Of a stretch of 64,000 nt of DNA, positions 1 to 47,520 are shown piece by piece (within the stretch, counting starts at the first letter, position 1; each line of letters opens with the position of its first letter). The stretch covers positions 9,220 through 73,219 of the forward strand of contig CAYJKM010000001.1 of the NCBI GenBank assembly GCA_964370805.1, written 5' to 3'. This DNA is from an uncultured Alphaproteobacteria bacterium. Lineage in GTDB: Bacteria; Electryoneota; RPQS01. Under the pieces are notes generated by a model, which saw only the letters and a list, made by a program, of their open reading frames with translations, was not told the DNA's origin and did no database searches. The translations under genes and the position numbers were made by a program.

Positions 1-23
1 ACTTGAAAAAAAGGGGAGGGACT

Positions 24-1490
24 ATGCGCTACGTGCTTGGACTGTTGCTACTCTCGACTACCTTCGTATGGGCGCAACCGGAAGGGCCGTGGATCATCGA
101 TGAAGTTGGCTTAAACGCAAATATGCAATGGCCTGTAGTTGTCGCGGATGACGCCGATACGATAATGGTCTTTTATACACTCTACACCTATGCGGGGCAG
201 TGGCTCGAGCAACGCGAGATCAGTGTCTCTGAATTCGTAGTGGTGGATTCTTTCCACCAAGAGATTGAGGATACGCTGAATTATCACCTGACCGACGCGC
301 TTGTATTTGATAGCGGCGATTGGGTGGTCAGCGCACATGCGACCCTCTCGCCATATCGTTCTGTGCGTCAATTCGTCCGCAATGCGTCCGGAATTGACGT
401 CGACATTTTGGCAGAAGGCTCCCATACTTTTTTGCCGTATGCGCATGGTTCATGGGTCCTCCCGCCAACGCTAGCTTACAAGGCAACCAGCGGCTTCATT
501 GTCTCCTGGATCCGTGGGAATGATGACAATTGGGCAGGAGAACCTCATCAAGATGCCATTCTTTGCTTTGTGCCTGACATCGAGAGTCCGGCAGAGCGGT
601 CTCCCTACCTGATCAATACGTTTGATGTTTTCCTGTACGGACCCTCCCGGATGGCCATTGAATCAGCTGTGGGAGACACTGCTGTTGCTCTTCTATCCCG
701 TAGTCCCGACTATCCGGGCTGGGGAGACCCCGTCTCTGGATCGCTGTACCCCGGGTCCTTCGGTGAGATGGACGGGCCGCTCATCCCATTGCCCTGTGCC
801 GATCAACCAATAGACATTGTTGAGACGGTCGGGCACAACTGGCTCTTGCTTGCGGATTCGAGCGCACCAAGAATCTACTCGTTTGACCTTGCCGGAAACT
901 GCATGCTCAGAGAAGATCTTGGAAGTGGGCCTGATCTGGCTGCTGCCGCATGGAACGATCATTATGGCTTCGTGCTCTTGCATGTTGAACCTTCATCAAT
1001 TCGAATCACACGAACCGATACGTCCGGCTCGCTGACTTATCCCGAAGGCGTGTTCTATTGGCAAGATACGAATTTTGATATCCGACAAGGAAACGTTGCC
1101 ATCTCCGATTCGGGGTGGGTCGTTGTGACATGGACGGAACGCAGCCAAATTGAAGATTATGTTCGCTTGATGTTGGCTGCGATGCCGTGGGACGCGCCGC
1201 TTGTTTCTAATGACCGTTTCGTCCCTCATCCTTCATCTCTCATCCTTTCCGCCTATCCCAATCCGTTTAACGGTGAGCTTCACATCCAATATGAGTTGAT
1301 GCGGGAGGGGGCGATTGAGTTAGCTGTTTTCAATGTGCTTGGGCAGCAAGTAGCGAAACTTGAGAGTGGAATAGAGAGGGCGGGAAGCCATCAAACAGTT
1401 TGGTCTCCCACGGCAGGCAGTGGCATCTACTTTGTTTCGCTGCGGACGGAACACGGAACTCGAACGCGGAAAGTGCTCTTCGCACGATAG
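24..1490 (+). CDS. secreted hypothetical protein with T9SS C-terminal sorting domain
   Basis: ORF 3..1490. ATG at 24 is preceded by GGGGAGGG. Signal peptide MRYVLGLLLLSTTFVWA. The last ~80 aa (HPSSLILSAYPNPFNGELHIQYEL...SGIYFVSLRTEHGTRTRKVLF) fit the Por/T9SS CTD pattern. No catalytic domain recognised. Confidence 0.8.
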   Translation: MRYVLGLLLLSTTFVWAQPEGPWIIDEVGLNANMQWPVVVADDADTIMVFYTLYTYAGQWLEQREISVSEFVVVDSFHQEIEDTLNYHLTDALVFDSGDWVVSAHATLSPYRSVRQFVRNASGIDVDILAEGSHTFLPYAHGSWVLPPTLAYKATSGFIVSWIRGNDDNWAGEPHQDAILCFVPDIESPAERSPYLINTFDVFLYGPSRMAIESAVGDTAVALLSRSPDYPGWGDPVSGSLYPGSFGEMDGPLIPLPCADQPIDIVETVGHNWLLLADSSAPRIYSFDLAGNCMLREDLGSGPDLAAAAWNDHYGFVLLHVEPSSIRITRTDTSGSLTYPEGVFYWQDTNFDIRQGNVAISDSGWVVVTWTERSQIEDYVRLMLAAMPWDAPLVSNDRFVPHPSSLILSAYPNPFNGELHIQYELMREGAIELAVFNVLGQQVAKLESGIERAGSHQTVWSPTAGSGIYFVSLRTEHGTRTRKVLFAR

Positions 1491-1511
1491 CAACTTCAAC
1501 AGGAGGCCGCC

Positions 1512-3497
1512 ATGATTTACTCGCTTCTGATTCTGCTCGCGTTTGCGGTATGCGGGTTTTCCCAACCGTGGCAATGGGAATTGTATGAGGGGGATTACTA
1601 CAATCCCACAGGATTTCCGGCACCAATCCTCAGTGGAGAAGAAGGTGCAGCCGCTGTGTTTGGCAATTTTGACGGAGAGGGCACGGACGAGCTATTCATG
1701 TGTGCCTGGGAAGACTATGTTGTTGCTCAGCGAGACAGCGGCGTTTTTCACTGGACGTCGTTTGTCGGTACGGCGGGCCCGCTGGGTGTCGGCTGCGAAG
1801 CAGCCAATCTGGACACCGACGAGAGCGATGAGCTGATTGTCTTTGGTGATGACGGAGTGCATGTGTGGGAGGCTGTCCTGTTCGATCCGTGGGAGTGGCA
1901 GCAGCGAGACGATTTGCTCGAGGGCTTTGACATCCCGGAAGGAGCTGTGCGAGGGATATATGGAGACTACGACGGCGATGGATTACTAAATGCTTTTTAC
2001 TGGTCAGGGGTTTGGGACGGACATTTTGAGCTTTGGGAACGTACTGCAGACCAGGATTGGGCTGTGGACACCTCTTTTGACGGCGGTGGGGGCGTGTCGT
2101 CAGGGATCTATGACGGCGACTTCGATCATGACGGAGACACCGACATTGCGATTGCCCCCTTGTTCACAGATGTACCGCTTTTCGGGGGCTTCGGCGAAAA
2201 TACCGCGCAGGGAATCGTCTGGCATTTGCAGACTGAAGGGATGTATGATTTTCCGGGACCGACGGGTGGAGATATCGACGGCGACGGTGTGTGGAAAGGG
2301 CTGTATGCCTATGAAGGATATTCCGGCTTCACCGTCGTGGAGGTCGAGCACGATTCACTCCAATTCCTTCGCGTTGCTGAAAGGCATTACGTCGGCGGAC
2401 TTTTCGCGCCAATCATCGGGAACTTTCGCACCGGCAGCCAAACTGTGGTCGGCGCGGTTCGGAACTGGTCCTATGGGGCACCCTTCTACCACAACGAAGC
2501 ATTCGCATGCATGAGTCACAGCGACAGCGGCTGGCGAGATCTGAACAACAACTTTGAAATTGCCTGGGACTATAATTGCGTGCTCGGCAACAAGTCCGAT
2601 CTGAACGGCGATGGCCTTGACGACATTTTGAGTCTCCTGCGGAGTCAGAGTATTGGTGGAGCGACGACATGCATGATCTGGAGAAATACTGGAGATGAAG
2701 ACGCTGATGCATATGTCTCATCACCAATTACGCGTACTTTTCTGACGCGCCGCTTCATGCAGAATCCAGACACGCTCTTCCAATCTCATCAAATCGGCGA
2801 TGTCTCCGGTGACGGACGAGCGGAGCTCGGCGTGCTGGCGACCGTCGGCACTGATTCCTCCCGCATCCTCTTCTTCGAGAAACTCGGAGAGATCGAGGAC
2901 ACTACATTTGTGGCACGACCCGAATGGTGTACATCTTTGCCGGGGGGCATGACCGGTCTGCGGCTCGCTGATATTGACAACGATGGTCTGGCCGAGATCA
3001 TCGCACACCGAAACAACGGCTCGTGGCGAACGTTTTTCCGCCGCAATGGAGTCTGGCAAGAGTACTCCAGCATTTTGCCGACGATCATGGCAAATGACGT
3101 CTCCTTTGCCGATGCCGACAACGATGGCGATCTCGATTTATTTGCCGGCGATCAGCTTTGGTACAGTCTAAGCCCAAGTAACACAGACTATCCCTTCATC
3201 CTTCAGCCCTCAGCCTTCAGCCTTTCCGCTTACCCGAATCCCTTTAACAGCACAACCACCTTCACGTACGACTTGCCACAGCGCAGCAATGTGGAGCTGA
3301 CTATCTTCAATTTATTGGGAGAGCAGGTCGCAGTGCTGGTTCAGGGAGCACAGGAGGCGGGAGCTCACACCGCCCGCTGGCAGCCCTCAGACGGAGTTGA
3401 GGTTCGGCGCGGTCAGCAAGTTTCGAGCGGGATTTACTTTGCGAAGCTCTCCGCCGGCACGAGCATCAAGACCCAGAAAGTCGTATATTTACGGTAG
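1512..3497 (+). CDS. FG-GAP/VCBS-repeat (integrin-alpha-like beta-propeller) protein with T9SS CTD
   Basis: AGGAGG upstream of ATG. Signal peptide MIYSLLILLAFAVCGFSQP. Repeated Ca-loop motifs DYDGDGLLN, DFDHDGDTDIAIA, GDIDGDGVW, DLNGDGLDDIL, GDVSGDGRAELG, ADIDNDGLAEII, ADADNDGDLDLFAG. CTD is LSAYPNPFNSTTTFTYDL...SGIYFAKL...KVVYLR. Confidence 0.85.
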   Translation: MIYSLLILLAFAVCGFSQPWQWELYEGDYYNPTGFPAPILSGEEGAAAVFGNFDGEGTDELFMCAWEDYVVAQRDSGVFHWTSFVGTAGPLGVGCEAANLDTDESDELIVFGDDGVHVWEAVLFDPWEWQQRDDLLEGFDIPEGAVRGIYGDYDGDGLLNAFYWSGVWDGHFELWERTADQDWAVDTSFDGGGGVSSGIYDGDFDHDGDTDIAIAPLFTDVPLFGGFGENTAQGIVWHLQTEGMYDFPGPTGGDIDGDGVWKGLYAYEGYSGFTVVEVEHDSLQFLRVAERHYVGGLFAPIIGNFRTGSQTVVGAVRNWSYGAPFYHNEAFACMSHSDSGWRDLNNNFEIAWDYNCVLGNKSDLNGDGLDDILSLLRSQSIGGATTCMIWRNTGDEDADAYVSSPITRTFLTRRFMQNPDTLFQSHQIGDVSGDGRAELGVLATVGTDSSRILFFEKLGEIEDTTFVARPEWCTSLPGGMTGLRLADIDNDGLAEIIAHRNNGSWRTFFRRNGVWQEYSSILPTIMANDVSFADADNDGDLDLFAGDQLWYSLSPSNTDYPFILQPSAFSLSAYPNPFNSTTTFTYDLPQRSNVELTIFNLLGEQVAVLVQGAQEAGAHTARWQPSDGVEVRRGQQVSSGIYFAKLSAGTSIKTQKVVYLR

Positions 3498-4852: not shown

Positions 4853-5575
4853 ATGAAGTCCTCTTGCTACTTACTCGCGACAATCCTGTTGCTCATTGCG
4901 CTCGGCTGCCAGAACGACGACGAGACCACTCCGCCGCTATCCACACTTAGCATTTCGATCTCGATTGACCCTGATACCATCTGGTTCATCTATGGCCAAG
5001 CCGCTATCGCGGACGTGGTTATCTCAGTAACCGAGGACGGAGTTCCGGTCACGGGCGCAATCGTGACCTCGTCACTGGCCGAACCCTCCACCGGTCAGTT
5101 ATCCGGTTTTCGCGAGCGGACGGATACCACCGATGCCAGCGGTCAAATTCAGCTTCAATACTACTCGACGCTGACCGGCACCGATGTCATGACTTCAACT
5201 GCCGGCACCGCTTCGTTTACGACGGCCATCGTCGCCGCGCATCCGTACAACGGCGAGATGCTGTCCATCGACTTGTTTGTCAGCCCACCGGAATGGTATT
5301 TCCCGTACTATGGTGATACCGCTTCGATTGTCTGTGAAGCTGTCGTCTATGACGAGTCGGCGCAACCCGTCCCCCGCCTGAATCTCAACTTCTATTCGCA
5401 GCGCGGCCAGCTCAGCGACAACCCACTCACGGATGAATATGGCCGCACGGTTGCCATTCTGTCCGGCACGGTGGACGACATTTTTCCGGATCAACACACT
5501 CCGGAGATCACTTGCGAAGTGTTTGTCGAGATCAGCATGTTCAATGAGGCGCAATTGATTCTCTTCAGACGCTAA
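4853..5575 (+). CDS. lipoprotein L1 with two Ig-like (invasin/Big_1-like) domains
   Basis: GGAGAAGGA SD. Lipobox LLIALGC|QNDDE. Beta-sandwich style sequence VVISVTEDGVPVTGAIVTSSL...TDASGQIQLQYYS. First gene of the TP operon. Confidence 0.75.
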   Translation: MKSSCYLLATILLLIALGCQNDDETTPPLSTLSISISIDPDTIWFIYGQAAIADVVISVTEDGVPVTGAIVTSSLAEPSTGQLSGFRERTDTTDASGQIQLQYYSTLTGTDVMTSTAGTASFTTAIVAAHPYNGEMLSIDLFVSPPEWYFPYYGDTASIVCEAVVYDESAQPVPRLNLNFYSQRGQLSDNPLTDEYGRTVAILSGTVDDIFPDQHTPEITCEVFVEISMFNEAQLILFRR

Positions 5576-5586
5576 GGAGCACTCCC

Positions 5587-7185
5587 ATGCCCCGCACAGC
5601 TCATCGTTTGCTTTTCTTGTCCTTGCTGACCATCATGGCCTCGCTGGCCTATGGCATCAACTACATGTATTTCTCACACTTTGAGAGGACTTCGTTCAAC
5701 GACATTATACGCTTCTGGCATGAAGACATGCTTGCTGGTCCGGTTCGCTCTAATTCGCAGATAGGCATCATGGAGAACCCCGTCTTCTATGACTATGTGA
5801 TGCAGGGCGGGATGTGGACAGACTTTGAGCACGGGCCGGGATACAATCCTCTCTTTCTCGGGCCTGATCCGCTCTTCCGTGCGCAGAACCTGCCCTTTCC
5901 CGAGACTGCATCCGTGATCCGCGAGCGCGCTCTCGAACAGGATTACTACTTCAATGCCGGACCGAATATGTTGGCTTGGGTGCGACTTAGCCACGACACG
6001 CTGAAACTTGCCTGGATCGAAGAGGATCAGCCGATAGATTCACTTCCTGCCTTCGAGGACATCCTGCTGCCGGACACGGCGTTTGTCTTTTTTGAGGCCA
6101 CGCTCCGGATATCCGGTACAGTCAGCACCGTATTGACTTTGGGCGCCAGCGGCAGAATTGGCCTGGAAGACAATATTCTCTATGCGTCCACAGTATCACA
6201 GGAGGGAATGCCGGTTGCGGGTCACCCGGAGAAATTGGCGTTGGTATCGGAAAATGAGATCAAGATCTTGAACACGCAGGCAAACGGACGAAACGACGAA
6301 TGGCGTTATCCGTTCGAGCCGCCGGATTCGATGAACGCCGCCGATATCGCCTTGAATGGCATCTTCGTTGCGATGAATGAGAGTTTCACGTTTGAGAATC
6401 AAAATGACCCCGACAGCGGGTATCAAGGGCCTTCACATGACGAGCGCGGTAACATCTATCTGTGGGGCTCGCTGATGCAAAAGCGCCGTTCATACATACA
6501 TCGTTCCAACCACCTTGGCACCGGCTATGGCAAGCAGTATCGGTATGACGAAGACTTGCGCTTCTGGAATGTTCCCTTGTGGAGCGACACCCTGCAGGAA
6601 AATGCCGTCGATCCAGCCGGGCTTGAATTCGGCGAGATTTTCATCGGCGACACACTCTGGCGCGAAGTCGTGGTCACCAACGACTTCATCCCGGTGTGGT
6701 TAACTCCAATCACCGTTAACTCCGGCTTCGGTTTCTTCACCCCTGTGGATAGCCTTTCCTCTGACTGGGAGCATCACATCCAAGTCGGCTTCTCCCCCCA
6801 CGCTCCCGGTCTCGATCTGGGTGAGTTGCGCGTGGACATTCCTTATTACAACCAGTCATTCACGATTGCGCTGGAAGGCACCGGCATCACCACCGCTGTC
6901 GAAGACCCGTTCATCCCGCATCCCTCGTCCTTCGGCTTGTCCGCGTTTCCGAATCCCTTCAACGCCGCCACGCGGATTTCGTATTCCCTGCCGCAGCGCA
7001 GTTTCATCGAGCTGGCTGTATTCGACCTCACCGGCCGCCGCATCCGGACGCTGGTGCAAGGAGACCGTGATGCTGGTGTGCATCACGTCTCATTTAACGC
7101 CGCCGATCTGCCCAGCGGCCTTTACTTCGTCCGGCTGCTAACTGCCGAGCGAGTCTTAACGCAAAAACTTCTTCTGGTCAAATAA
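5587..7185 (+). CDS. TP1, tandem paralog of an uncharacterised secreted family (beta-helix-like core + Ig-like module + T9SS CTD)
   Basis: AAGGAG SD. Signal peptide ends SLAYG. Family motifs INYMYFS, IRFWHED, GPVRSN, FPETASVIRERA, LRISGTVSTVLTLGASGRIGLEDNILY, EKLALVSENEIKILNT and SFTFENQNDPDSGYQGPSHDERGNIYLWGSLMQKRRSYIHRSNHLGTGYGKQYRYDEDL. CTD is FPNPFNAATRISYSL...SGLYFVRL...KLLLVK. Confidence 0.85.
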   Translation: MPRTAHRLLFLSLLTIMASLAYGINYMYFSHFERTSFNDIIRFWHEDMLAGPVRSNSQIGIMENPVFYDYVMQGGMWTDFEHGPGYNPLFLGPDPLFRAQNLPFPETASVIRERALEQDYYFNAGPNMLAWVRLSHDTLKLAWIEEDQPIDSLPAFEDILLPDTAFVFFEATLRISGTVSTVLTLGASGRIGLEDNILYASTVSQEGMPVAGHPEKLALVSENEIKILNTQANGRNDEWRYPFEPPDSMNAADIALNGIFVAMNESFTFENQNDPDSGYQGPSHDERGNIYLWGSLMQKRRSYIHRSNHLGTGYGKQYRYDEDLRFWNVPLWSDTLQENAVDPAGLEFGEIFIGDTLWREVVVTNDFIPVWLTPITVNSGFGFFTPVDSLSSDWEHHIQVGFSPHAPGLDLGELRVDIPYYNQSFTIALEGTGITTAVEDPFIPHPSSFGLSAFPNPFNAATRISYSLPQRSFIELAVFDLTGRRIRTLVQGDRDAGVHHVSFNAADLPSGLYFVRLLTAERVLTQKLLLVK

Positions 7186-7238
7186 CGTCCCGGTCATTGC
7201 CTCCACTCTGTGGAGGAGAATTCGAAACAGGAGGCCCT

Positions 7239-8861
7239 ATGCATCGCACCGCACACCGTCTGCTCTTCTTGGCCCTGCTCGTGATTATGGCGTCGCTCGC
7301 CTATGGCATCAACTACATGTATTTCTCAACCAGCGAGATGACACCCTTCGGCGATCGGATCCGCTTCTGGCATCTGGATACCCTGAACGGGCCGATCCGC
7401 ACGAATGGGCAGTTTTCCATCATGCAGAACCCGGTCTTTTTTGATCTGGTGATTCAGTCGGAGTTCTACATCGATCAGGGCGCCGGGTACAGTCCGTATT
7501 TCCTGTCGGAGTTCCCACCGGTGCTCAACGCGCCGGAACTGCCCTTTCCGGAAACCGCAAGCGTCATCCGCGAGCGAGCGTTTGCGCAAGGCTTCTACTT
7601 TAACGCCGGCCCGGGCATGCAGGCGTGGATTCTGATTCTTGAAGATACGTTGCGACTGCACTGGGCACAGATTGACGAGCCCTTCGATACGCTCGTCTTT
7701 GAAGACATTGGCCTCCCCGCGGAGGCGACTGTCTTCATCGACGCTTCCCTGCGTATCTCGGGAACCGTCAGCACGGTGCTCACGATCGGCGCCGGCGGAC
7801 GCATCGGCCTCGACGACAATATCCGCTACGTGTCAAGCTCAGCGGAGTACCCGTGGCCGCCCACACCCGGACACACGGAGAAGCTCGCGCTCGTCTCCGA
7901 AAACCAAATCAAAGTCCTGAACACGCCCGCCAATGGCCGTGATAACTGCGGTGGCCCGGGGCCTGATAGCCAGCCGGATATCAACTTGAAAGACATCGTC
8001 ATCAGCGGCATCCTCGTGGCCATGAACGAGAGCTTCACGTTTGAGAATCAGAATGACGCGGACAGCGGTTATCAAGGCCCGTATCCGGACGAGCGCGGCA
8101 CGGTTTACCTGTGGGGTTCGCTCATGCATCGCCAGCGCAACTATGTGCACCGCTCCAATCATGGCGGCAGCGGCTACAACAAGATCTACCGTTACGACGA
8201 AGATCTGCGTCACTGGGATTTCGGCCTGTTCGACACCACCTATGCGGAGAACCGGCTCGCTCCAGAAAGTATTGACTTTGGAACCGTGCTGATCGGTCAA
8301 CAGGCGCGCGATACCGTGCGGCTTGCGAATGATTTTATTCCCCTCGGTCTGGCAGAGGTCTCTCCCGGTGTCGCGCCGTTCCTTTATGATCATTTTGTGT
8401 CGTGTCCGCAGCCGTCGCATCCGGATTCCATCTGCCTCGAGTGGCTGAAGCAAATTGCCGTGTCGTTCACGCCGTCCGAGGCGGGCGAGTTTTTCGACAC
8501 CCTGCGCTTCCGCCTCCGCTATTATGACCTTTGGATGGAAGTGCCCATGCACGGCATCGGGATCACCACAGCGACTGAGGATCCGTTCATCCCGCAGCCC
8601 TCGTCTCTCTCCCTTGCTGCTTGTCCCAATCCGTTCAACAGCCGCACGACGTTTTCGTTTGCGCTGCCCACAGCGAGCAACGTGAAGCTAACGCTTTTTG
8701 ACGTCAATGGCCGCGAAGTGGCCCGCATCGTCGATCAGGCATACGCCCCCGGCAGCTACAACGTGAGTTTCGATGCGGCGGCGTTGAGTTCGGGCGTGTA
8801 TTTCGCCAGCCTGAGCACGCCGTCTCGCACCTTAACACAGAAATTACTGCTCATAAAGTGA
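7239..8861 (+). CDS. TP2, tandem paralog (closest to TP1)
   Basis: ORF 7197..8861. ATG at 7239 has GGAGG 6 nt upstream and restores the TP1-like N-terminus MHRTAHRLLFLALLVIMASLAYG|INYMYFS. Same motif set as TP1. CTD is CPNPFNSRTTFSFAL...SGVYFASL...KLLLIK. Confidence 0.85.
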   Translation: MHRTAHRLLFLALLVIMASLAYGINYMYFSTSEMTPFGDRIRFWHLDTLNGPIRTNGQFSIMQNPVFFDLVIQSEFYIDQGAGYSPYFLSEFPPVLNAPELPFPETASVIRERAFAQGFYFNAGPGMQAWILILEDTLRLHWAQIDEPFDTLVFEDIGLPAEATVFIDASLRISGTVSTVLTIGAGGRIGLDDNIRYVSSSAEYPWPPTPGHTEKLALVSENQIKVLNTPANGRDNCGGPGPDSQPDINLKDIVISGILVAMNESFTFENQNDADSGYQGPYPDERGTVYLWGSLMHRQRNYVHRSNHGGSGYNKIYRYDEDLRHWDFGLFDTTYAENRLAPESIDFGTVLIGQQARDTVRLANDFIPLGLAEVSPGVAPFLYDHFVSCPQPSHPDSICLEWLKQIAVSFTPSEAGEFFDTLRFRLRYYDLWMEVPMHGIGITTATEDPFIPQPSSLSLAACPNPFNSRTTFSFALPTASNVKLTLFDVNGREVARIVDQAYAPGSYNVSFDAAALSSGVYFASLSTPSRTLTQKLLLIK

Positions 8862-8904
8862 CACGCGCCGCGTGCCATCCTGAACAAACTGAAGGATCTC
8901 TCTG

Positions 8905-10461
8905 GTGAGAATACTCGTGATGAAGGTGCTCTCCATTCTACTGATTGTGACTTCGGCCTGCGCCGTCGACTACATGTATCTCTCGGATAATGAGACGACC
9001 GTGTTCGGCGACCGCATTCGCTGGTGGCATGAAGATACAGTGGGCACGGCGATCCGCACGAATGACTGCTTCGCGATCATGGAAAATCCGGTGTTCTATG
9101 GCCCGGTCATTCAGGCCGGCGAGAACTGTGATTGCTGTGATCCGCCCTGCGTCTGCGGTGTCCCGCCTTATCCGTTTCCCGAAACCGCCGATTGGCTGCG
9201 CGGTTTGGCTCTGCATGAGATGTCGGAACCGGACACAGTTTGGTGGGCCAACTATTACTTTGATCAAGGTGCGAATGACCAGGCCTTTGTCAAAATCACG
9301 CCGGAGTACTTGCACATCTGGTGGGGAGTGTGGGGAATACCGGTGGATACAGTCTTTGGAATCGACGAAATTCGGTCGCTCAATTCGTATCGACACGTGA
9401 TATATTTCGATTGTCCCATCCGTATTTCCGGTGTGGTCGGCGGCTATCTCATCATTGCCTCCAGCGGCACGATCGGCATTGCGGATAATATCGTTTACGA
9501 AAGTTCCACGATGCCGTACGGCATACCGACGCCGGGACACTCCGAACGCTTTGCCCTCGTCGCCGAAGGCAACATCAAGATTCTGAACAATCCCTTCAAT
9601 GGCCGCGAGAACTGCAGCGGTTTCGGCCCGGGTGGCACAAACGACCCGGATCTGAAAGACGTCGCGCTGAACGGTTATTACGTCGCGCTCAACCAGAGTT
9701 TCACCTTTGAGCAGCAAAACGACTGCGTGGACAGCGCCTATTGCGGCCCAACACCCGATGAACGCGGCACGATCCGGCTCTGGGGCGCGCTCGCGCATAA
9801 GCGGCGCGGTTATGTCCATCGCTCCAATCATGGCGGTACGGGCTACGCAAAGCAGTATCGCTGGGATCCCGAACTCGCGGACTTCGACGCCGGCGTGTTC
9901 AATCACACGGCCAATCGTTTCACGCCGGATTCGCTCGTCTTCGGCGACGTGGCTGTCGGGGATTCGCTTTGGGATACGCTGTTCGTGGACAATTACCGCC
10001 AGGCGGTCGGGCTGGCCGCCGTCTTGACCTCACCGCCGTTCCACACTCCGCCGGTTTCGTACGAGTACGGCCAGCACTTCGCCTTTCCGGTGCGCTTTGC
10101 GCCGCAGAATGTGGGCACGTTCTACGGCAACATCTCGATGAACATCGCCGGCGACTATTATCAGGTTCCAATCACGGGTCGCGGCATCTCCGGTGGCTCC
10201 GCCATCCCCGAGCCGTCCGTGTATCCCAATCCGTTCAACAACACGGCCACGATCTCGTTTCTCCTTCCCGTCGGCAGTGACGTCCGCGTGGACGTCTTTG
10301 ATGTGCTCGGCCGCCACGTGCAAACACTGCTCGATGGCCAGCGCGAGGCCGGCTTGCAACGCGTGAACATTGACGGACGCCGCCTTGCCTCCGGAGTGTA
10401 TTTCGTCCACCTGAACACGCCCGCGCAGCACTTTACCCGCAAGATTCTGCTCATCAAGTGA
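8905..10461 (+). CDS. TP3, tandem paralog with Cys-rich insert
   Basis: GTG at 8905 (AAGGA 8 nt upstream) or ATG at 8920. Motifs DYMYLSDNETTVFGDRIRWWHEDT, ERFALVAEGNIKILNNPFNGREN and SFTFEQQNDCVDSAYCGPTPDERGTIRLWGALAHKRRGYVHRSNHGGTGYAKQYRWD. Insert AGENCDCCDPPCVCG. CTD is YPNPFNNTATISFLL...SGVYFVHL...KILLIK. Confidence 0.85.
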   Translation: MRILVMKVLSILLIVTSACAVDYMYLSDNETTVFGDRIRWWHEDTVGTAIRTNDCFAIMENPVFYGPVIQAGENCDCCDPPCVCGVPPYPFPETADWLRGLALHEMSEPDTVWWANYYFDQGANDQAFVKITPEYLHIWWGVWGIPVDTVFGIDEIRSLNSYRHVIYFDCPIRISGVVGGYLIIASSGTIGIADNIVYESSTMPYGIPTPGHSERFALVAEGNIKILNNPFNGRENCSGFGPGGTNDPDLKDVALNGYYVALNQSFTFEQQNDCVDSAYCGPTPDERGTIRLWGALAHKRRGYVHRSNHGGTGYAKQYRWDPELADFDAGVFNHTANRFTPDSLVFGDVAVGDSLWDTLFVDNYRQAVGLAAVLTSPPFHTPPVSYEYGQHFAFPVRFAPQNVGTFYGNISMNIAGDYYQVPITGRGISGGSAIPEPSVYPNPFNNTATISFLLPVGSDVRVDVFDVLGRHVQTLLDGQREAGLQRVNIDGRRLASGVYFVHLNTPAQHFTRKILLIK

Positions 10462-10468
10462 GGCCAGC

Positions 10469-12031
10469 ATGAGACTCTTTCTGCAGATTCTTTGCTTCGT
10501 CCTGCTGCTTGTGCTCTTCATCGGGGCGGCGGAAGCATTGAACTATACGTACCTCTCGGATATCGAGATGACGACCTTTGGGGATCGCATCCGCTTCATG
10601 CGGGAAGATAGTATCTGCGGTATTATTCGCACCAATGGTCAATTCGCGTTCTTTGAAGACTTTGTGCCACCGTGTTGTCTTGTAATTATGGGAGATGCAG
10701 GCTCAAATTTCGAGTCAAATCCCGACTGCCCGCAGAATTACATGCCGAACATCCTACCAACGGTGATTCCCATTGACCCGTCCGGCCTGCGCAACTCAGC
10801 GTTGGTGAATGGTACCTTTTACGACCAAGGGGAGATGGATCAGGCCACGATTCACATCGTCGGCGACGAACTGCTGGTCTGGTGGGGAGAGTTGGGTCAA
10901 CCGGTGGATACGACCGTTGCGCCGACGGCCATTGTAGTCAACCCCGATCAACCCGTCCATTACTTTGATTGCATGTTGCGAGTCTCGGGCACTCTGAGCA
11001 GCAGTCTGATCCTGATCGGCGTGAGCAAAGTCGGACTCGAAGACAATATACTTTATGCAAGCTCCGACCCTGTGACTGGCGCGCTGACGGAAAATCATCC
11101 CGAAAAGTTCGCGCTCGTCTCGCTGGGCGACATCAAGATTCTCAACAATCCTGCTAACGGCCGTCTGAACTCTAATGGCCTCGGCCAGGATCAAACCAAT
11201 CCCGATTCCACAAGTATCGCCTTGAACGGCTTTTATTTCGCTCTCGGCAGTTACTGGGCCGATGCGGCAGGCAGTTTCACGTTCGAAAATCAGAATGACT
11301 GTGTGGACAGCGGCTACTGCGGACCGTCTCCCGATGAACGCGGCAAGATGTATTTGTGGGGCGGCATCACACAGCGGCGGCGCGGGTATCTGCACCGTTC
11401 CAACAATGGTGGAACTGGATACATCAGACGCTGGCACTGGGACGAAGAGTTGGCTGACTGGGACATCGGCGTGTTTGATGAGGATCATTTTGCGGATCCC
11501 GACACGGTCTTTTTCGGCGACGTGCCCGTCGGCAGCATTGCCCGTGACACGGTCGAGTTGAATCTGTTCGATTACAGCACGCTCGGTGCAGTGATTGCCT
11601 CGCAACCCTTTGACGCTGAGCGGATCGAGCCGTTTTTCGGTACGCACTTCCACGTCCCCGTGAGCTTCGAACCCATTCAATCCGGCAACTACTCCGGCAT
11701 GCTGAATATCAGCACCACGTATCAGTTCTTCCAGATCCCGTTGTACGGCCATGCCGTGCCGGGGAACGGGCCTGTGTTCGAGCCATCCGTCTTTCCGAAT
11801 CCCTTCAACAACACGGCCATGATTTCGTTCCGTCTGGAAACCGCCAGTGACGTGCGCGTCACACTGTATGACATTCTTGGCCGCCACGTTTCGACATTGC
11901 TCGATGAGCATCGCCTGGCCGGAATTCAGCAGGTTCAGATCAACGGTCAAGCGTTGGCTTCGGGTGTTTACTTCGCGCGGCTGGAGACTCCCGCATTCGG
12001 ACGGACGATCAAGGTGCTCCTTCTGAAATGA
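10469..12031 (+). CDS. TP4, tandem paralog
   Basis: Starts 7 nt after the TP3 stop. Motifs LNYTYLSDIEMTTFGDRIRFMRED, EKFALVSLGDIKILNNPANGRLN and SFTFENQNDCVDSGYCGPSPDERGKMYLWGGITQRRRGYLHRSNNGGTGYIRRWHWD. CTD is FPNPFNNTAMISFRL...SGVYFARL...KVLLLK. Confidence 0.85.
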   Translation: MRLFLQILCFVLLLVLFIGAAEALNYTYLSDIEMTTFGDRIRFMREDSICGIIRTNGQFAFFEDFVPPCCLVIMGDAGSNFESNPDCPQNYMPNILPTVIPIDPSGLRNSALVNGTFYDQGEMDQATIHIVGDELLVWWGELGQPVDTTVAPTAIVVNPDQPVHYFDCMLRVSGTLSSSLILIGVSKVGLEDNILYASSDPVTGALTENHPEKFALVSLGDIKILNNPANGRLNSNGLGQDQTNPDSTSIALNGFYFALGSYWADAAGSFTFENQNDCVDSGYCGPSPDERGKMYLWGGITQRRRGYLHRSNNGGTGYIRRWHWDEELADWDIGVFDEDHFADPDTVFFGDVPVGSIARDTVELNLFDYSTLGAVIASQPFDAERIEPFFGTHFHVPVSFEPIQSGNYSGMLNISTTYQFFQIPLYGHAVPGNGPVFEPSVFPNPFNNTAMISFRLETASDVRVTLYDILGRHVSTLLDEHRLAGIQQVQINGQALASGVYFARLETPAFGRTIKVLLLK

Positions 12032-12034
12032 CTC

Positions 12035-12058
12035 GTAGGGACATGGCTTGCCATGTCC
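12035..12058 (+). repeat. GTAGGG-prefixed hairpin (REP-B family) between TP4 and TP5
   Basis: GTAGGGACATGG-CTTG-CCATGTCC with an 8-bp stem GGACATGG/CCATGTCC. It begins 3 nt after the TP4 stop. Confidence 0.6.
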
Positions 12059-12076
12059 GATAGGAGAACAATTCTC

Positions 12077-13660
12077 ATGCGTAGCGCACTCCGCAAATTC
12101 CTGCTCGTCGCAATCGTCCTCACGCTCGCGACCTCCGCGCGTGGTCAAAATGTGTATTCGTGGCTGACGGACATCGAAACGCGTCCATTTGGTCCCGACG
12201 ATGACTACCAACCCTTTGGACCGTTCGATGGCATAAACGGCATCGTGCGTTCCAACGACACGATCACCATCGCCGGTTCTCCTGTGTTTGACTGGATCAT
12301 CACACATGCCCCGCTTTTCGAGCACGGCCCGGATTATAACCCGACCTTCAACGTCCCTCCCACTTTCAATGCTTCACTGATCGGATTTCCTGAATACGCC
12401 GAGAACCTGCGCAACTATGCCACTCATTACTTCAACCCCGGCTCGGACAAGCAAATGCGCATGGTAATCAACGGATCGACACTGCACCATTTTACTTGGG
12501 ACTTAGGTGAGGCGTTTGATTCGCTCGAATGCATTTCCGATCAGATTGAGATTCCGCAGGGTGAAGGCAGCGGTCTCTGTGTCTTTACGGAGACGCGGCT
12601 GGAACTCGCCGGAACGGAGATTACCGGCCGCATTACGATTGGCTCGGCGCAACAAATTCGCCTGATGGACGATGTTCGGGTCGGTGTGGAATACACGAGT
12701 GGTCCGCCGGAGTACCGCATACAGGAGTGGTGCCCCCACTACATCGGCATCGTCAGCGAAGGCGATATTAAGATTGCGAACACGCCGCGGAACGGCCGCG
12801 AAAATTCGAGCGGAATGGGCATGGAGCAGCCTAATCAGGCATATACGGACATCATCATTCATGCGGACATGATCGCTCTCGGCAGCTTCGAGTTCGAGCA
12901 GCAGAACGACCCGGACAGCGGCTACGTCTGCGATTGCAGTCCCGACTGGCGCGGCGACATCTGGTTCTGGGGCGCGCTGCAGCAGTGCGAGCGCAGCTAC
13001 CTTTCCCGCACGAACAACGGCGGCACGGGTTACCGACTGCATCACCGCTTTGACACCCGCCTGCTCATGCAGCGGCCGCCCTGCTTCTTCAGTCCTATCG
13101 ATTCCAGCGGCGGGCCTCAAACTACGGACACACTCTTTTTTGGTGAGGTTGCGGTCGGCACCACGGTCTGGGACACAGCGCATGTCTATCCGATGATGCA
13201 GAGTTACCTCGGCGCCGTCATCGCTTCCTATCCGTTCTATGCTGAGCGGATCGAGCCGTTCTGGGGTACTCACTTCACGATTCCCGTCAGCTTCACTCCC
13301 GCGCAAACCGGGCAGTACACCGGGATGCTCAATGTGAGCACCTCGTATCACTATTATCAAATCGTTCTGCGCGGCACCGGCATTCCTGGCAGTGCGCCGC
13401 CGATTGCCGAGCCGTCCGTCTATCCCAATCCCTTCAACGCGGTAACCACGTTGACGTTTGAACTGGAAAGCGCCGGCGTGGTCAAGCTGGAACTCTACAA
13501 TACCCTCGGCCAACTCGTCGCCACGCCGCTTGAACAATCTTACGAAGCCGGACGGCATCACGCGGTCATCTCCGCCGCCGACTTGCCATCCGGTGTTTAC
13601 TTCGCACGGCTCACGACACCGACACAACATTCCATGCACAAGTTATTGTTGATCAGATAG
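12077..13660 (+). CDS. TP5, most divergent tandem paralog
   Basis: ORF 12053..13660. ATG at 12077 has AGGAGA 9 nt upstream and gives signal peptide MRSALRKFLLVAIVLTLATSARG. The 12053 ATG lies inside the hairpin. Motifs GIVRSNDTITIAGSPVF, SFEFEQQNDPDSGYVCDCSPDWRGDIWFWGALQQCERSYLSRTNNGGTGYRLHHRFD. CTD is YPNPFNAVTTLTFEL...SGVYFARL...KLLLIR. Confidence 0.8.
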   Translation: MRSALRKFLLVAIVLTLATSARGQNVYSWLTDIETRPFGPDDDYQPFGPFDGINGIVRSNDTITIAGSPVFDWIITHAPLFEHGPDYNPTFNVPPTFNASLIGFPEYAENLRNYATHYFNPGSDKQMRMVINGSTLHHFTWDLGEAFDSLECISDQIEIPQGEGSGLCVFTETRLELAGTEITGRITIGSAQQIRLMDDVRVGVEYTSGPPEYRIQEWCPHYIGIVSEGDIKIANTPRNGRENSSGMGMEQPNQAYTDIIIHADMIALGSFEFEQQNDPDSGYVCDCSPDWRGDIWFWGALQQCERSYLSRTNNGGTGYRLHHRFDTRLLMQRPPCFFSPIDSSGGPQTTDTLFFGEVAVGTTVWDTAHVYPMMQSYLGAVIASYPFYAERIEPFWGTHFTIPVSFTPAQTGQYTGMLNVSTSYHYYQIVLRGTGIPGSAPPIAEPSVYPNPFNAVTTLTFELESAGVVKLELYNTLGQLVATPLEQSYEAGRHHAVISAADLPSGVYFARLTTPTQHSMHKLLLIR

Positions 13661-13670
13661 GAGCGCCCTC

Positions 13671-15215
13671 ATGAACAAAACAGCTCAGTATCTTCATTTT
13701 GCGGCGCTGCTTGTGGCCCTTTGCGGAGCAGCCTATGGAATCAACTATGCATATCTTTCCGACCAAGAGCTGACCGTCTTCGGCGACCGCATTCGGTTCT
13801 GGCATGAAGATACGTTGAGCGGCCCCGTCCGCTCAAACTACCAGATTGCCATCATGGAGAACCCCGTTTTCTATGACATCGTCATTCAAGCGGGATCCTG
13901 GACCGACTTCGAGCACGTCTCCGGATACAACCCGTGTTTTCTCGGCCCGCCGCCGGTCTTCCGAGCGCGGCCGATCTGGATTCCCGACCAAGCCTATCAC
14001 TTGCACGAAAACGCCACGCAGATCTTCGCTCCCGGTGCCGGCCAGCAAATGAAGATCGAAATCGACAGCAACTTCGCCCGGCTTTACACCTGGCCGATCG
14101 GGATCGGCTTCAATGGCGCCGATCCTGTGGTTGATTCCATGTTGCTGAACTCGACGGAGATCTTGTTCTTCGAATGTCCGCTGCGAGTTGAAGCCAGAGT
14201 CGCGGGGGATATTACGCTCGCCAGCACGCACAGCATCGGCCTGGATGACAACGCGACGTGCGTGGATGCCGATTCCGTCACGGGCAGAATGCCCGAAGAA
14301 AGCGAGAATTTTCTGACGCTGGTCGCGGAAGGTGAAATCATTGTCCGCAACACCCCGGAGAATGGACGCAATAATTCGGACGGGTTAGGACACGATCAGA
14401 CTGATCTCGATCTCCGCGACATCGTGATTACGGCCAACGTGTTCGCGCTGGGCGGCAGCTTTACCTTCGACCAGCAGAATGATCCGGACAGCGGCTACCA
14501 GGGTCCCTCGCCGGACGAGCGCGGCATCATCTGGCTTTATGGCGGACTGACGCAGCATCGCCGTGGCTACGTGCATCGTTCCAATCACGGCGGTACCGGC
14601 TATGCCAAGGTTTACCGCTATGACGAGCGATTACGCGCCCGACTCAACCCCGTCCTCGGGCCGTTCGGAAACGAGCCGCCGGATACCTTGTATTTCGGCG
14701 ACGTTGCCGTCGGCGAGATTTTGTGGGACACGTTGGAGCTGCATCCCGAATTGCCCGGTACTCTGGGTGCAGTCCTCGCGTCGTATCCGTTCTGGGCCGA
14801 ACGGATTGAGCCATTCTTCGGCAGTGATTTCGTGATTCCCGTTCGCTTCGCTCCACCATCCGTCGGTCCTCATACCGGCATGCTGACGATCGTCACCACC
14901 TATCAAACCTTCCAAATTGTCCTCCGGGGCACAGGAATTCCCGGCAGTGCGCCGCCGATTGCTGAGCCGTCCGTCTATCCGAATCCGTTCAACAACAACG
15001 CGGCGATCTCATTCACGATTCCCGTTGCCGGGCACGTGTCGCTCGAACTCTACGACATCCTCGGCCGCCGCGCGCTGACGGTCTTCGATGACGACGTCCT
15101 GCCCGGCTCGCAAAGCCTGCGAATTGATGCGCAAACTCTCGCTTCCGGCATCTACTTCGCGCACCTCCGCACACCGTCACAGCAGAAAACCATGAAGCTG
15201 CTGCTCGTTAAGTGA
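13671..15215 (+). CDS. TP6, tandem paralog
   Basis: AGGAG SD. Signal peptide ends GAAYG|INYAYLSDQELTVFGDRIRFWHEDTLSGPVRSN. Motif SFTFDQQNDPDSGYQGPSPDERGIIWLYGGLTQHRRGYVHRSNHGGTGYAKVYRYDERL. CTD is YPNPFNNNAAISFTI...SGIYFAHL...KLLLVK. Confidence 0.85.
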   Translation: MNKTAQYLHFAALLVALCGAAYGINYAYLSDQELTVFGDRIRFWHEDTLSGPVRSNYQIAIMENPVFYDIVIQAGSWTDFEHVSGYNPCFLGPPPVFRARPIWIPDQAYHLHENATQIFAPGAGQQMKIEIDSNFARLYTWPIGIGFNGADPVVDSMLLNSTEILFFECPLRVEARVAGDITLASTHSIGLDDNATCVDADSVTGRMPEESENFLTLVAEGEIIVRNTPENGRNNSDGLGHDQTDLDLRDIVITANVFALGGSFTFDQQNDPDSGYQGPSPDERGIIWLYGGLTQHRRGYVHRSNHGGTGYAKVYRYDERLRARLNPVLGPFGNEPPDTLYFGDVAVGEILWDTLELHPELPGTLGAVLASYPFWAERIEPFFGSDFVIPVRFAPPSVGPHTGMLTIVTTYQTFQIVLRGTGIPGSAPPIAEPSVYPNPFNNNAAISFTIPVAGHVSLELYDILGRRALTVFDDDVLPGSQSLRIDAQTLASGIYFAHLRTPSQQKTMKLLLVK

Positions 15216-15278
15216 GCCTTTTCATTTGTCATCCTTGAAGCCGCGTGGCGGCTGAAGGATCTCACTGGAACACACACG

Positions 15279-15992
15279 ATGAAACAATATTGTACACTGA
15301 TTCTGCTACCGCTGTTCCTCTGTCTTTTCTTAGCCATCGGCTGTGAGGAGGAAGATGGGAAAATTGTGGAACCGCCTTATTATTGGATTTGGAATGTCCA
15401 GGTCCTCCTCGGTACCGACACGCTCTATTATCTTCCCGGCGACTCTGCATCCACAATTGTAATTGTGATCGTCACGGATCAGTCTGGCAATGTTGTGCCT
15501 CATGTTCGTGTCGGCATCGCCCTCGCCAATCCCCAAGTCGGCATCCTCGAGTTCCTTGATGAGGAACTGCGCGACACGACCAATTCCTTTGGTCAAGTGC
15601 GTTTGGCATACACCTGCCTTGCCACGCCCGGCATGAACATCGTCTCCGCCACCGCCAGCGGAAGAACGGATATGGATTCGATCGCCGCGTTGCCTTTGCA
15701 AGGCGCGGCCTCTTTGGTATTTTCATTCTCTCGGGACTCCATCTTCTACGAGCATGATCTCAACGACTCTGTTCGTGTCGGCCTGTGTATTCGTGACGCT
15801 CTCAACAATCCCATTGAAGGCATCTCGTTTCAGTTCCCTTTCTATGAAGGCCAGCTCACGCCTTTGCAACCCACCGATTACACGGGTTGCGCATATTTCT
15901 GGTGGCACCCGCCCCACGAGACCGGCTGGCAATGTATTTCCTATCAAGTCGGCGAAGTCTCCGCAACCGCCTGCATCTGGGTTGAACCTTAG
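15279..15992 (+). CDS. lipoprotein L2 with two Ig-like (Big_1-like) domains
   Basis: Lipobox FLAIGC|EEEDG. Motif TLYYLPGDSASTIVIVIVTDQSGNVVPHVRVGIALANPQVGILEF...TTNSFGQVRLAY. Tandem duplicate of L3. Confidence 0.8.
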   Translation: MKQYCTLILLPLFLCLFLAIGCEEEDGKIVEPPYYWIWNVQVLLGTDTLYYLPGDSASTIVIVIVTDQSGNVVPHVRVGIALANPQVGILEFLDEELRDTTNSFGQVRLAYTCLATPGMNIVSATASGRTDMDSIAALPLQGAASLVFSFSRDSIFYEHDLNDSVRVGLCIRDALNNPIEGISFQFPFYEGQLTPLQPTDYTGCAYFWWHPPHETGWQCISYQVGEVSATACIWVEP

Positions 15993-16003
15993 GAAACAAA
16001 GCC

Positions 16004-16714
16004 ATGCACCACGCACTCAAGTGGATTCCACCACTCCTTGCCGCTACCTTCCTCCTGCTTGCCTCCGGATGTGAGGAAAAGAAGATTGGGATGAACGGTT
16101 GGCACGATCCTATCTATGATCCAGAAATCATCCTCGGCGCTGATACGCTTTATTATCTTCCCGGCGACTCCGCATCCACGACTGTAACTGTCATCGTCAC
16201 GGACTACAGCGGCAACGTTGCTCCCGGGGTCAGAGTCGGCATCGCCCTCGCTAATCCCCAAATCGGCATTCTTGAATTCCTCGACACGGAACTCCGCGAT
16301 ACGACGAACGACCTCGGCCGCGTGGAAATGATGTACTATTGCTATGGCAGTCCCGGCATGAATATCATCACGGCCACAGCCGGATGGCGAACGGACGCAG
16401 ATACGATTCTCTCTGAAGAAGGGTACGGTGACCCCTTCCCCTTTTGGGTGGTTGTCACTCCCGACAGCATTCATTTTTTGGTGCTGGACTCCGTTCGTGT
16501 CAGCGCCTGTGTCGCCGATCACAATCACAATGGTATTGCGGGCGCCACACTGATTGTCGAGCAGGCATCGGGATCCTACACTCCTCCCCCGCTCACAGAT
16601 TCCTACGGATGCACGGAATTCTCCTGGTGGCCGGCACATGACATCGGCTGGCATGAGATCACCTTACGCTTTCAGAATCAGACAGCATCCGACAGCGTCT
16701 GGGTCGAACCGTAA
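16004..16714 (+). CDS. lipoprotein L3 with two Ig-like (Big_1-like) domains
   Basis: Lipobox LLASGC|EEKK. Motif TLYYLPGDSASTTVTVIVTDYSGNVAPGVRVGIALANPQIGILEF. Roughly two-thirds identical to L2 by eye over the first domain. Confidence 0.8.
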   Translation: MHHALKWIPPLLAATFLLLASGCEEKKIGMNGWHDPIYDPEIILGADTLYYLPGDSASTTVTVIVTDYSGNVAPGVRVGIALANPQIGILEFLDTELRDTTNDLGRVEMMYYCYGSPGMNIITATAGWRTDADTILSEEGYGDPFPFWVVVTPDSIHFLVLDSVRVSACVADHNHNGIAGATLIVEQASGSYTPPPLTDSYGCTEFSWWPAHDIGWHEITLRFQNQTASDSVWVEP

Positions 16715-33926: not shown

Positions 33927-33970
33927 ATTCGGACAGACCTTGCCCTCGGGTGAGGTCTGCGTTGTTTTTG
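33927..33970 (+). promoter_or_regulatory. conserved leader hairpin E1 (terminator-shaped)
   Basis: ATTCGGACAGACCTTGCCCTCGGGTGAGGTCTGCGTTGTTTTTG. An 11-12-bp stem plus U-tract ending 11 nt before ATG 33982. Near-identical to E2 at 47477-47520 (minus strand). Confidence 0.5.
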
Positions 33971-33981
33971 ACAATCGCGAT

Positions 33982-42789: not shown

Positions 42790-42809
42790 GATCAAGGTTC
42801 CTGCTTAGA

Positions 42810-44786: not shown

Positions 44787-44825
44787 GGTTGCTCCTTGCA
44801 AAAGAAATTCGTCGTTTAGAAGGGA

Positions 44826-44866
44826 GCCGACACGGTGTCGGCTTGTCGACTGAAAGTCGACCCTAC
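44826..44866 (-). repeat. GTAGGG-prefixed double hairpin (REP-B family)
   Basis: Minus strand reads GTAGGG-TCGAC-TTTCA-GTCGA-CAA-GCCGACAC-CG-GTGTCGGC. The TAG of GTAGGG is the stop codon of CDS 44863..47451. Confidence 0.65.
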
Positions 44867-47451: not shown

Positions 47452-47476
47452 GGCTGCCTCCGGGCTGAATTGACCG

Positions 47477-47520
47477 CTAAAACAAGACAGACCTCGCCGA
47501 AGGGCAAGGTCTGTTCGAAT
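47477..47520 (-). promoter_or_regulatory. conserved leader hairpin E2 (terminator-shaped)
   Basis: Minus strand reads ATTCGAACAGACCTTGCCCTTCGGCGAGGTCTGTCTTGTTTTAG. It ends 25 nt before ATG 47451. Homologous to E1. Confidence 0.5.

Follow-up and report, generated by a model that had tools for sequence, protein, structure and literature searches.

ComZ of Thermus thermophilus (PDB 6QVI) is a GspK-like pilin in which a triangular solenoid of ~380 aa is inserted before the last strand, and FfIBP (4NU2) is the closest structural relative of this solenoid (PMC6561018). The same plan is reported for cyanobacterial PilX, an apical beta-solenoid protein that is proposed to plug the pilus tip and to serve as adhesin where PilY1 is lacking, and whose subfamily PilX-EPS/HpsA is tied to polysaccharide secretion (bioRxiv 10.64898/2026.02.12.705559). 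The type-A cargo of the type IX secretion system (T9SS) includes gingipains and SprB-type adhesins, and Big_1/Invasin_D3 immunoglobulin-like (Ig) domains are contained in intimin/invasin-type surface proteins. The locus described here is a cluster of nine plus-strand open reading frames (ORFs) at positions 4853-16714 of a 64,000-nucleotide stretch of DNA from an uncultured bacterium of the FCB group (contig CAYJKM010000001.1, positions 9,220-73,219; the whole stretch is hereafter the window), which encode the three Big_1 lipoproteins L1-L3 and the six paralogs TP1-TP6; in appearance, two type IV pilus cluster components have here been copied and wired to the T9SS.

The TPs are read here as surface-anchored, diversified binding modules that would derive from a beta-rich domain of type IV pilus clusters and have the Big_1 lipoproteins as partners, a reading to which a probability of about 0.6 is assigned. 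Each TP core would be a free-standing copy of the domain that, within these bacterial lineages, follows a PilX/GspK-like minor-pilin head in pilus-cluster proteins; the head would have given way to a Sec signal peptide, and the short tail at the C-terminus to an Ig spacer of the HYDIN/ASH type and a type-A C-terminal domain (CTD) of the T9SS. By analogy with T9SS type-A cargo, the TPs would be exported by Sec with cleavage right before a conserved N-Y-M-Y, recognized through the CTD and moved across the outer membrane by the T9SS and, after removal of the CTD, anchored to the surface or released. The conserved end of the core (~260-320) would maintain the fold or a common site, and the variable stretches 131-165, 194-219, and 240-259 may confer differing specificities on the six paralogs; L1-L3 would be short lipoprotein forms of the two domains that make up the N-terminal module of a large pilus-cluster Big_1 lipoprotein, probably serving as partner or scaffold on the surface.

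Anatomy of the TP proteins and their relatives in type IV pilus clusters

In each TP a signal peptide is followed by a core of ~320 aa, an Ig domain of the HYDIN/ASH type and, last, a type-A CTD of the T9SS, an anatomy that a preliminary description, made from the letters of the window alone, had correctly proposed. In TP1 (5587-7185, plus strand, 532 aa) the signal peptide occupies residues 1-22, the core residues 23-340 (nt 5653-6606), the Ig domain residues 341-437 (nt 6607-6897), and the CTD residues 453-532 (nt 6943-7182). The N-termini of TP1-TP6 are ordinary signal peptides, in which a positively charged n-region and a hydrophobic core are recognized by eye, as is a site of small residues (AYG, ACA, AEA or ARG) right before the conserved NYMY; the TP core begins at residue ~23 and no N-terminal pilin helix is present. 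All six CTDs exceed the curated cut-offs, with 31.1-45.6 bits for PF18962 (cut-off 27) and 35.5-44.0 bits for TIGR04183 (cut-off 23), and what lies between the core and the CTD resembles HYDIN/ASH domains (PDB profile match to Hydin, E 6e-16). No other Pfam or NCBIfam model is above its cut-off on TP1-TP6, in agreement with the earlier expectation that only the CTD and ASH/choice-of-anchor-D models would appear, choice_anchor_D being below threshold on the TPs; relatives pass PF22544. Like T9SS type-A cargo, the TPs carry a C-terminal sorting domain of ~80 aa after an Ig-like domain together with a Sec signal peptide; unlike it, their passenger is a pilus-cluster-type beta-rich domain.

TP2-TP6 share 35-55% identity with TP1. 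Mean pairwise identity is 56-80% in the near-invariant block, at TP1 residues ~260-320, and 22-24% in the most variable stretch, at residues 131-165. The core contains ~14 invariant and ~30 nearly invariant residues, mostly polar, and is acidic in all paralogs (pI 4.3-4.7, with 2-5 Lys). The number of cysteine residues differs from core to core (10 in TP3, 7 in TP4, 6 in TP5, 3 in TP6, 1 in TP2, and 0 in TP1); in particular, TP3 has the cluster CDCCDPPCVCG at window positions 9124-9165 (residues ~74-87), and in TP4 the stretch of note is at residues ~68-90; the cysteines could be disulfide or metal sites that differ among the paralogs.

A profile of the six cores retrieved 106 close homologs of two kinds, with either PF18962 at the C-terminus or an N-terminal head with DUF4900, and an exhaustive HMMER search of 1.84 billion representatives gave 2,034 matches at E<=1e-3, 208 of which at E<=1e-30; the family is large, with ~2,000 clusters when grouped at 50% identity, and nearly all of it is without annotation. 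In about one third of the best core matches the core follows a PilX/GspK-like pseudopilin head of ~160 aa, and on pseudopilin-headed proteins the E-values of the core profile go down to 1e-145. The homology of the TP core to the pilus-cluster domain is near certain: the core, at first described as unrecognized, has in fact no Pfam or NCBIfam model, but it is clearly homologous to the ~330 C-terminal residues of pseudopilin proteins of the PilX/GspK kind.

Three architectures can be distinguished, namely signal peptide, core, Ig, and CTD (~520 aa); head and core without CTD (~500 aa); and signal peptide, core, Beta_helix/DUF5123, and CTD (700-900 aa). The first residue of the core is ~23-50 where a signal peptide precedes it and ~153-167 in the majority of head types (135-204 overall). 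The head begins with a hydrophobic PilX/GspK-like helix (e.g., GGYVLVTAMILVMGLLGVGAAFMRW; pattern of the hydrophobic segment, GGYVLVTAMILV..AFMRW), and the core of head types is followed by a conserved tail of ~25 aa (PP.F...D..G..LFDIV.WG), a layout consistent with insertion of the core into a pilin fold of the GspK kind that closes with a short strand. JGI names three head-type proteins pseudopilin PulG; the Pfam models PilX_N/N_methyl are not reached by head-type relatives at E<=0.1, and three head-type proteins from the FCB group match no NCBIfam family at E<=0.1. DUF4900 (PF16241), a model to which no function is assigned, is the sole curated model touching the core: it straddles the head-core junction, its C-terminal ~50 positions aligning with the first ~50 of the ~320 core residues (YMYLS..FGDRI.FWH.DTL.G.V.SN), and the overlap occurs in head-type and in some T9SS-type proteins. 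Its gathering threshold of 29.4 bits is not reached by the TPs (14.8 for TP2, 13.7 for TP6, and no match for the others), and relatives score 18.7-32.9 bits, P0227 alone passing; a literature search returned nothing useful on DUF4900.

The gene context of the relatives was obtained by scanning all ORFs of the fetched loci with the hidden Markov models built here and removing duplicates, which left 79 loci from metagenome-assembled genomes (MAGs) labelled Calditrichota, KSB1, LCP-89, Electryonea, Tariuqbacter, Hatepunaea, and Caldithrix. Forty of these loci are head-type and 32 CTD-type, and the two types never share a locus; the closest MAGs all carry both versions. In every long locus examined the head-type gene sits in a conserved type IV pilus cluster with the order extracytoplasmic function (ECF) sigma factor, major pilin (N_methyl), PilT-like ATPase, two small ORFs with hydrophobic N-termini, core protein, PilM, PilN, PilO, one small gene, secretin, Wza-like Poly_export, a Big_1/Invasin_D3 protein of 800-1,170 aa, and PilB; the head-type proteins would be located at the pilus tip. 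In L001, L007, L008, and other head-type clusters (e.g., L001:16145-17824) the Wza-like Poly_export/SLBB gene adjoins the secretin, with the ECF sigma factor upstream, and no PilY1-like gene was seen in these clusters; this make-up is reminiscent of pilus-linked polysaccharide secretion systems. The cyanobacterial PilX proteins, to which the head types are likened by description, share this link to polysaccharide export, and differ in that no T9SS-coupled form is described in the preprint.

Tandem expansion is observed on the CTD side, where 14 of the 32 loci have at least two core genes (arrays of 2-6) and 7 at least four. The array of GCA_964406405.1 is syntenic with that of the window, as it comprises five TPs and one L followed, as in the window, by EamA and Nramp, and another close relative has five TPs with no L within 20 kb; the lipoprotein-TPn-lipoprotein layout that was to be looked for in relatives is seen in exact form in the window only, the nearest relative having five TPs and one L. 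A heteromeric fibre or coat had also been suggested, in which the six TPs would co-assemble on the surface with the lipoproteins as base or anchor, as six co-encoded paralogs, all T9SS cargo, and three lipoproteins in one operon-like unit might invite one to think; nothing was found in its support and it is highly improbable, since the copy number of 1-6 among relatives, with L often absent, fits a fixed stoichiometry poorly, every TP has a complete anchor (CTD) of its own, no polymerization feature such as donor strands or coiled coils is seen, and the homologous pilus-cluster domain would, by analogy with ComZ, act singly at each filament tip.

Head-type genes also occur as tandem pairs or triplets (L027, L034, L050, L058, L061, L063, L069, and L071), and core diversification therefore takes place in the pilus context too. 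In L078 (OY820579.1, 3462-11047) five tandem core-only genes of ~375 aa, with a signal-peptide-like start and without Ig or CTD, lie directly upstream of a head-type gene, a third mode of domain expansion located beside the pilus gene itself. In L016 (CAVTJX010000008.1, 13171-16355) two array members are split, into 195+395 aa and 190+120+303 aa, and are pseudogenes or the result of assembly frameshifts.

The lipoproteins have a pilus-cluster counterpart of their own. L1 (4853-5575, plus strand, 240 aa), L2 (15279-15992, plus strand, 237 aa), and L3 (16004-16714, plus strand, 236 aa) have, at residues 16-23 after a hydrophobic segment, the lipoboxes ALGC, AIGC, and ASGC, after which come acidic residues (QNDDE in L1, followed by Big_1-type Ig domains, EEED in L2, and EEKK in L3). 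Against the Big_1 cut-off of 34.9 bits (PF02369), L1 passes with 36.0 bits (E 7e-9) and L2 and L3 are just below it (32.0 and 32.1 bits); the pilus-cluster homolog scores 116.6 bits. L2 and L3 are 50% identical (E 1e-63) and L1 is 27-29% identical to either, so that the lipoboxes and the tandem duplication of L2/L3 reported at the outset both hold. The L1-L3 profile matches the N-terminal ~230 aa of the ~900-aa pilus-cluster Big_1 protein of close relatives (E 1e-26 to 1e-49), aligning to this N-terminal module and not to the later Big_1 repeats; in particular, L2 is 35% identical to L018:10363-13095 over 224 aa including the lipobox (E 5e-39), and lipoboxes are present in the large pilus-cluster Big_1 proteins as well. 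The L lipoproteins thus appear, from these alignments, to derive from a pilus-cluster component. Both they and the large lipoproteins contain Big_1/Invasin_D3 Ig domains as in intimin/invasin-type surface proteins, from which L1-L3 differ in bearing a lipobox instead of being inverse autotransporters and in having ~2 domains and no lectin-like tip. L-like proteins, with weaker scores at a generic Big_1 level, flank T9SS-type core genes in several distant lineages. The Big_1 lipoprotein module is flagged as a putative conserved partner.

Predicted fold and possible function of the core

The AlphaFold2 model of the TP1 core alone is nearly all beta (pLDDT 90.5, pTM 0.91), and that of full-length TP1 reaches a pLDDT of 89.4. 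The least confident part of the full-length model is the loop with the invariant N-D-P-D-S-G-Y (273-279), segment 274-280 having a pLDDT <50; such a loop may be of the kind that becomes ordered upon ligand or metal binding. Foldseek of the core model against the PDB gives no match at E<0.001. The top neighbor is the Thermus tip pilin ComZ (6qvi_B; E 0.13, TM 0.31 over 430 columns, a weak match), and six ice-binding beta-solenoids are among the top 25 matches (4nuh, 7ehk, 9lhr, 5uyt, 5b5h, and 4nu2), the ComZ and ice-binding solenoid matches spanning E 0.13-1.8 and TM 0.2-0.31; the remaining top neighbors are scattered low-coverage matches to ATPase-fold proteins. The initial guess of a beta-helix is consistent with the core model and with these best structural neighbors. 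Foldseek of full-length TP1 mostly retrieves tandem Ig proteins (HYDIN, Cep192, RbmA, and chaperone-usher proteins) and is uninformative on the core. A link to tailspikes or tail fibres was rejected, as Foldseek against viral structures (BFVD) gives nothing at E<0.1.

The TP core may weakly share the structural neighborhood of ComZ. The head-type relatives have in common with ComZ a GspK/PilX-like pilin part, a beta-rich domain of ~330-380 aa, a short C-terminal tail, and the pilus-gene context, and the ice-binding solenoids that rank after ComZ for the TP core are the nearest neighbors of ComZ itself. Unlike ComZ, the TPs have no pilin part and would leave the cell via the T9SS. ComZ binds DNA via lysines, and this lysine-dependent type of DNA binding is unlikely for the TPs because their cores are acidic and lysine-poor; polysaccharide or particle surfaces, rather than DNA, are guessed to be the ligand.

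An enzymatic role has to be weighed against the binding role. The TPs would then be a secreted battery of glycan-acting beta-helix lyases or hydrolases, in which the invariant block is the active site and the variable region sets the substrate range. The beta-rich core would agree with it, right-handed beta-helices being usually hydrolytic or lytic, as the authors of the ComZ structure remark (PMC6561018), and so would the many invariant and near-invariant polar residues; moreover, a Beta_helix/NosD T9SS protein is encoded in the neighboring array of GCA_964406405.1. However, no Pfam, NCBIfam or PDB sequence match to enzyme families was obtained (the Beta_helix (PF13229) and NosD models match no TP at E<=1), no enzyme-type beta-helix is among the top structural neighbors, and the invariant block is equally kept in the pilus-cluster form, whose known parallels bind or plug. 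An enzyme battery is therefore considered unlikely, and the 'diversified adhesin', one of the options first listed for the cluster, is the one that the evidence at hand favors.

Several observations weigh against the reading of the TPs as surface-anchored binding modules of pilus-cluster origin. The beta-solenoid fold of the core is putative, given the weak ComZ match, and a sequence link to ComZ is not detected, as neither the profiles A4 and A7, run against the PDB, nor a phmmer search with P0106 recovers 6QVI with E-values up to 10 allowed; what these searches match is confined to the Ig and CTD parts. The invariant polar residues N56, N233, Q272, N273, D274, D276, Y279, D285, R287, R306, and H305 could equally form a catalytic or metal site. 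The longer relatives of 700-900 aa add pectate-lyase-type domains after the core (Beta_helix, NosD, DUF5123 or Disaggr_assoc, with the Beta_helix match at residues ~430-730), although this Beta_helix is a separate extra domain. The association of L with the core is frequent and not universal, the close arrays L015 and L016 having no L in the locus. No T9SS machinery gene (PorK/L/M/N, SprA/Sov, PorU/V) was seen in the 64-kb window; the window encodes 13 CTD proteins in total, from which it is argued that a T9SS exists in this organism.

If the TPs are such binding modules, six 'hypothetical T9SS proteins' become a testable class, in which a pilus-cluster beta-rich domain of the ComZ/PilX kind is displayed without a pilus. 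The cluster suggests that a bulky minor-pilin domain can be an autonomous module outside the pilus, which bears on the question of whether such domains are plugs, adhesins or receptors, and it links the type IV pilus and T9SS surface machines in poorly known candidate phyla living on particles and polymers. In a literature search no T9SS-coupled pilus-tip solenoid, or T9SS passenger of this kind, was found described.

TP5 and a pilin-headed protein of the same metagenome

No pilus genes lie in the surroundings of the cluster within the window. The assembly that contains the window contig has a pilus cluster on NODE_188, which encodes a head-type protein, P0007; this protein is found in three samples, namely this assembly and two of the other three samples that bear the operon. 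Since P0007 shares with the window the samples, the coverage (21.5 vs. 25.3, 5.1 vs. 7.3, and 3.9 vs. 4.9 for the P0007 and window contigs; ratios 0.70-0.85), and the tetranucleotide profile (correlation 0.946), the organism of the window probably carries both the head-type and the T9SS-type versions. The six diverged variants and one pilus-borne copy, probably of the same genome, are a natural set for specificity mapping.

TP5 (12077-13660, plus strand, 527 aa) is the paralog nearest to this pilin-headed gene. The two proteins are 60% identical over 344 aa (E 2e-130) in an alignment that spans exactly TP5 residues 16-345, from just past the signal peptide to a shared 'QRPPCFF..DS.G' tail before the Ig domain of TP5; the ends of the alignment mark the swap points, at which the pilin head is exchanged for a signal peptide and the last pilin strand for Ig and CTD. 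The similarity is a mosaic: P0007 residues 243-335 are 86-94% identical to TP5 and 7-40% to the other TPs, and at both ends of the core the nearest TP is TP6 (13671-15215, plus strand, 514 aa), which has the architecture of TP1 and is near P0007 at the core start and at the conserved end. In the segment of high identity the DNA is 80% identical and third positions are near saturation, third-position identity at conserved codons being 61% between TP5 and P0007 vs. 42-50% for other paralogs. A recent gene conversion between TP5 and P0007 is ruled out by these values, and the relation is consequently old and kept by purifying selection.

A neighbor-joining tree of 126 cores, built without support values, shows the head-type genes interspersed with the CTD-type genes lineage by lineage, TP5 and two GCA_964406405.1 genes being placed among the head types. 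TP5-type genes are 64% and 73% identical to the head-type gene of their own genome and 57% to the TP5-type gene of the other genome. Taken with the presence of both versions in every closest MAG, with the pilus-cluster counterparts of both core and L module, and with a middle segment so well preserved despite near-saturated synonymous sites, this could mean that the TPs, with or without L1-L3, are docks or mimics recognized by the tip complex of the cell's own pilus or by its large Big_1 lipoprotein, in cell-cell adhesion, kin recognition or pilus regulation. Such a role is improbable, as TP5 alone of the six tracks the head-type gene, the other five being strongly diverged, the within-genome similarity could be an old gene conversion without functional meaning, and the tree has no support values.

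A broader proposal, speculative and with the odds well against it, is that the core and the Big_1 N-terminal module form a portable two-part surface unit that has been moved repeatedly between pilus and T9SS display in bacteria of the FCB group (Calditrichota, KSB1, LCP-89, Electryonea, and relatives), the TP5-type gene being kept matched to the pilus-cluster gene of its own genome by concerted evolution or co-selection. If this were true, there would be a functional dialogue between pili and a T9SS-anchored coat; for instance, the pilus tip could dock on matching surface proteins of its own cell or of a sister cell (self-recognition, retraction-driven aggregation), or a captured ligand could be handed from the pilus tip to the cell surface.

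Layout of the cluster and other features of the window

The nine genes, their common strand, and the coordinates given in the preliminary description are confirmed by the ORFs and by identical genes in independent calls on four public metagenome assemblies (ENA ERZ13693045, ERZ13693047, ERZ13693048, and ERZ13693099), the window corresponding to NODE_356 of 199,795 bp. Most gene starts stand as well, and three need minor corrections: TP2 (7239-8861, plus strand, 540 aa; architecture as TP1, of which it is the nearest paralog with 55% identity) starts at ATG 7239, as indicated by an upstream AGGAG and the public gene calls, and not at TTG 7197; for TP3 (8920-10461, plus strand; architecture as TP1) ATG 8920, which gives 513 aa, is a likelier start than GTG 8905 (518 aa); and for TP5 ATG 12077 is likelier than 12053 (535 aa). 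TP4 (10469-12031, plus strand, 520 aa) has the architecture of TP1 with a 7-aa insertion directly before the invariant block.

With the corrected starts the intergenic gaps are 7-63 nt, and a GGAG-like Shine-Dalgarno site lies 6-12 nt before most genes, often overlapping the preceding stop codon; because of the short gaps and of this overlap the nine genes are probably, as far as layout can predict it, a single transcription unit. The only gap large enough for a promoter is the putative promoter space of 381 nt between a 2-hydroxyacid dehydrogenase gene and L1 (4472-4852); a scan for the sigma-70 consensus was uninformative (9 sites vs. 6.4 expected), as was a terminator scan.

A 17-nt motif, CTGAAGGATCTCNCTGG, is present in exactly two copies in the 64 kb (0.02 expected), before TP3 and L2, in the two longest gaps. 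The first copy, CTGAAGGATCTCTCTGG, is at 8889-8905 (plus strand) in the TP2-TP3 gap, with ATCCT upstream, and the second, an exact match, at 15252-15268 (plus strand), within the element 15231-15268 of the TP6-L2 gap. In both copies AAGGAT can pair with the upstream ATCCT(T); in the second it pairs with ATCCTT at 15232-15237 around an inner GCCGC/GCGGC hairpin. The RNA folds no better than shuffled sequences (z -0.29 for the first copy; z -1.42 for the second, with a minimum free energy of -20.1 kcal/mol), and the second copy is not an intrinsic terminator because no T-run follows. The motif is absent from 81 other loci of relatives, and a conserved regulatory element is not supported on these grounds; the two exact copies that had been noticed are real, the shared control at which they hinted being putative.

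Minus-strand ORFs of 237-509 aa lie antisense inside the TP genes (7839-8552, 8938-9906, 10796-12325, and 12503-13639); they have no gene calls on the public contigs and probably arise as a side effect of how GC-rich genes use codons.

Seven further T9SS CTD proteins are encoded in the window (3-3497, 33940-36951, 40621-47553 on the minus strand, and 62244-63299), three of which are adjacent minus-strand genes of 724, 663, and 896 aa without other Pfam matches; outside the CTD these seven show no paralogy to the TPs or to each other. The GC content falls to 0.476 at 34001-36000, compared with ~0.56-0.59 elsewhere, inside the gene of a T9SS protein of 1,003 aa with a weak DUF5123 match (33940-36951), which may be recently acquired or compositionally odd. 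A block of two CTD proteins followed by the 2-hydroxyacid dehydrogenase is conserved in the window contig and a related MAG. Upstream of it the contig of the window (L002:981-4388) encodes a 1,135-aa protein with a faint DUF4901 match and a TonB-dependent receptor, and the related MAG (L006:1-1016) has there a Rce1-like protein of 1,131 aa; the Pfam accessions of DUF4901 (PF16244) and DUF4900 (PF16241) are near each other.

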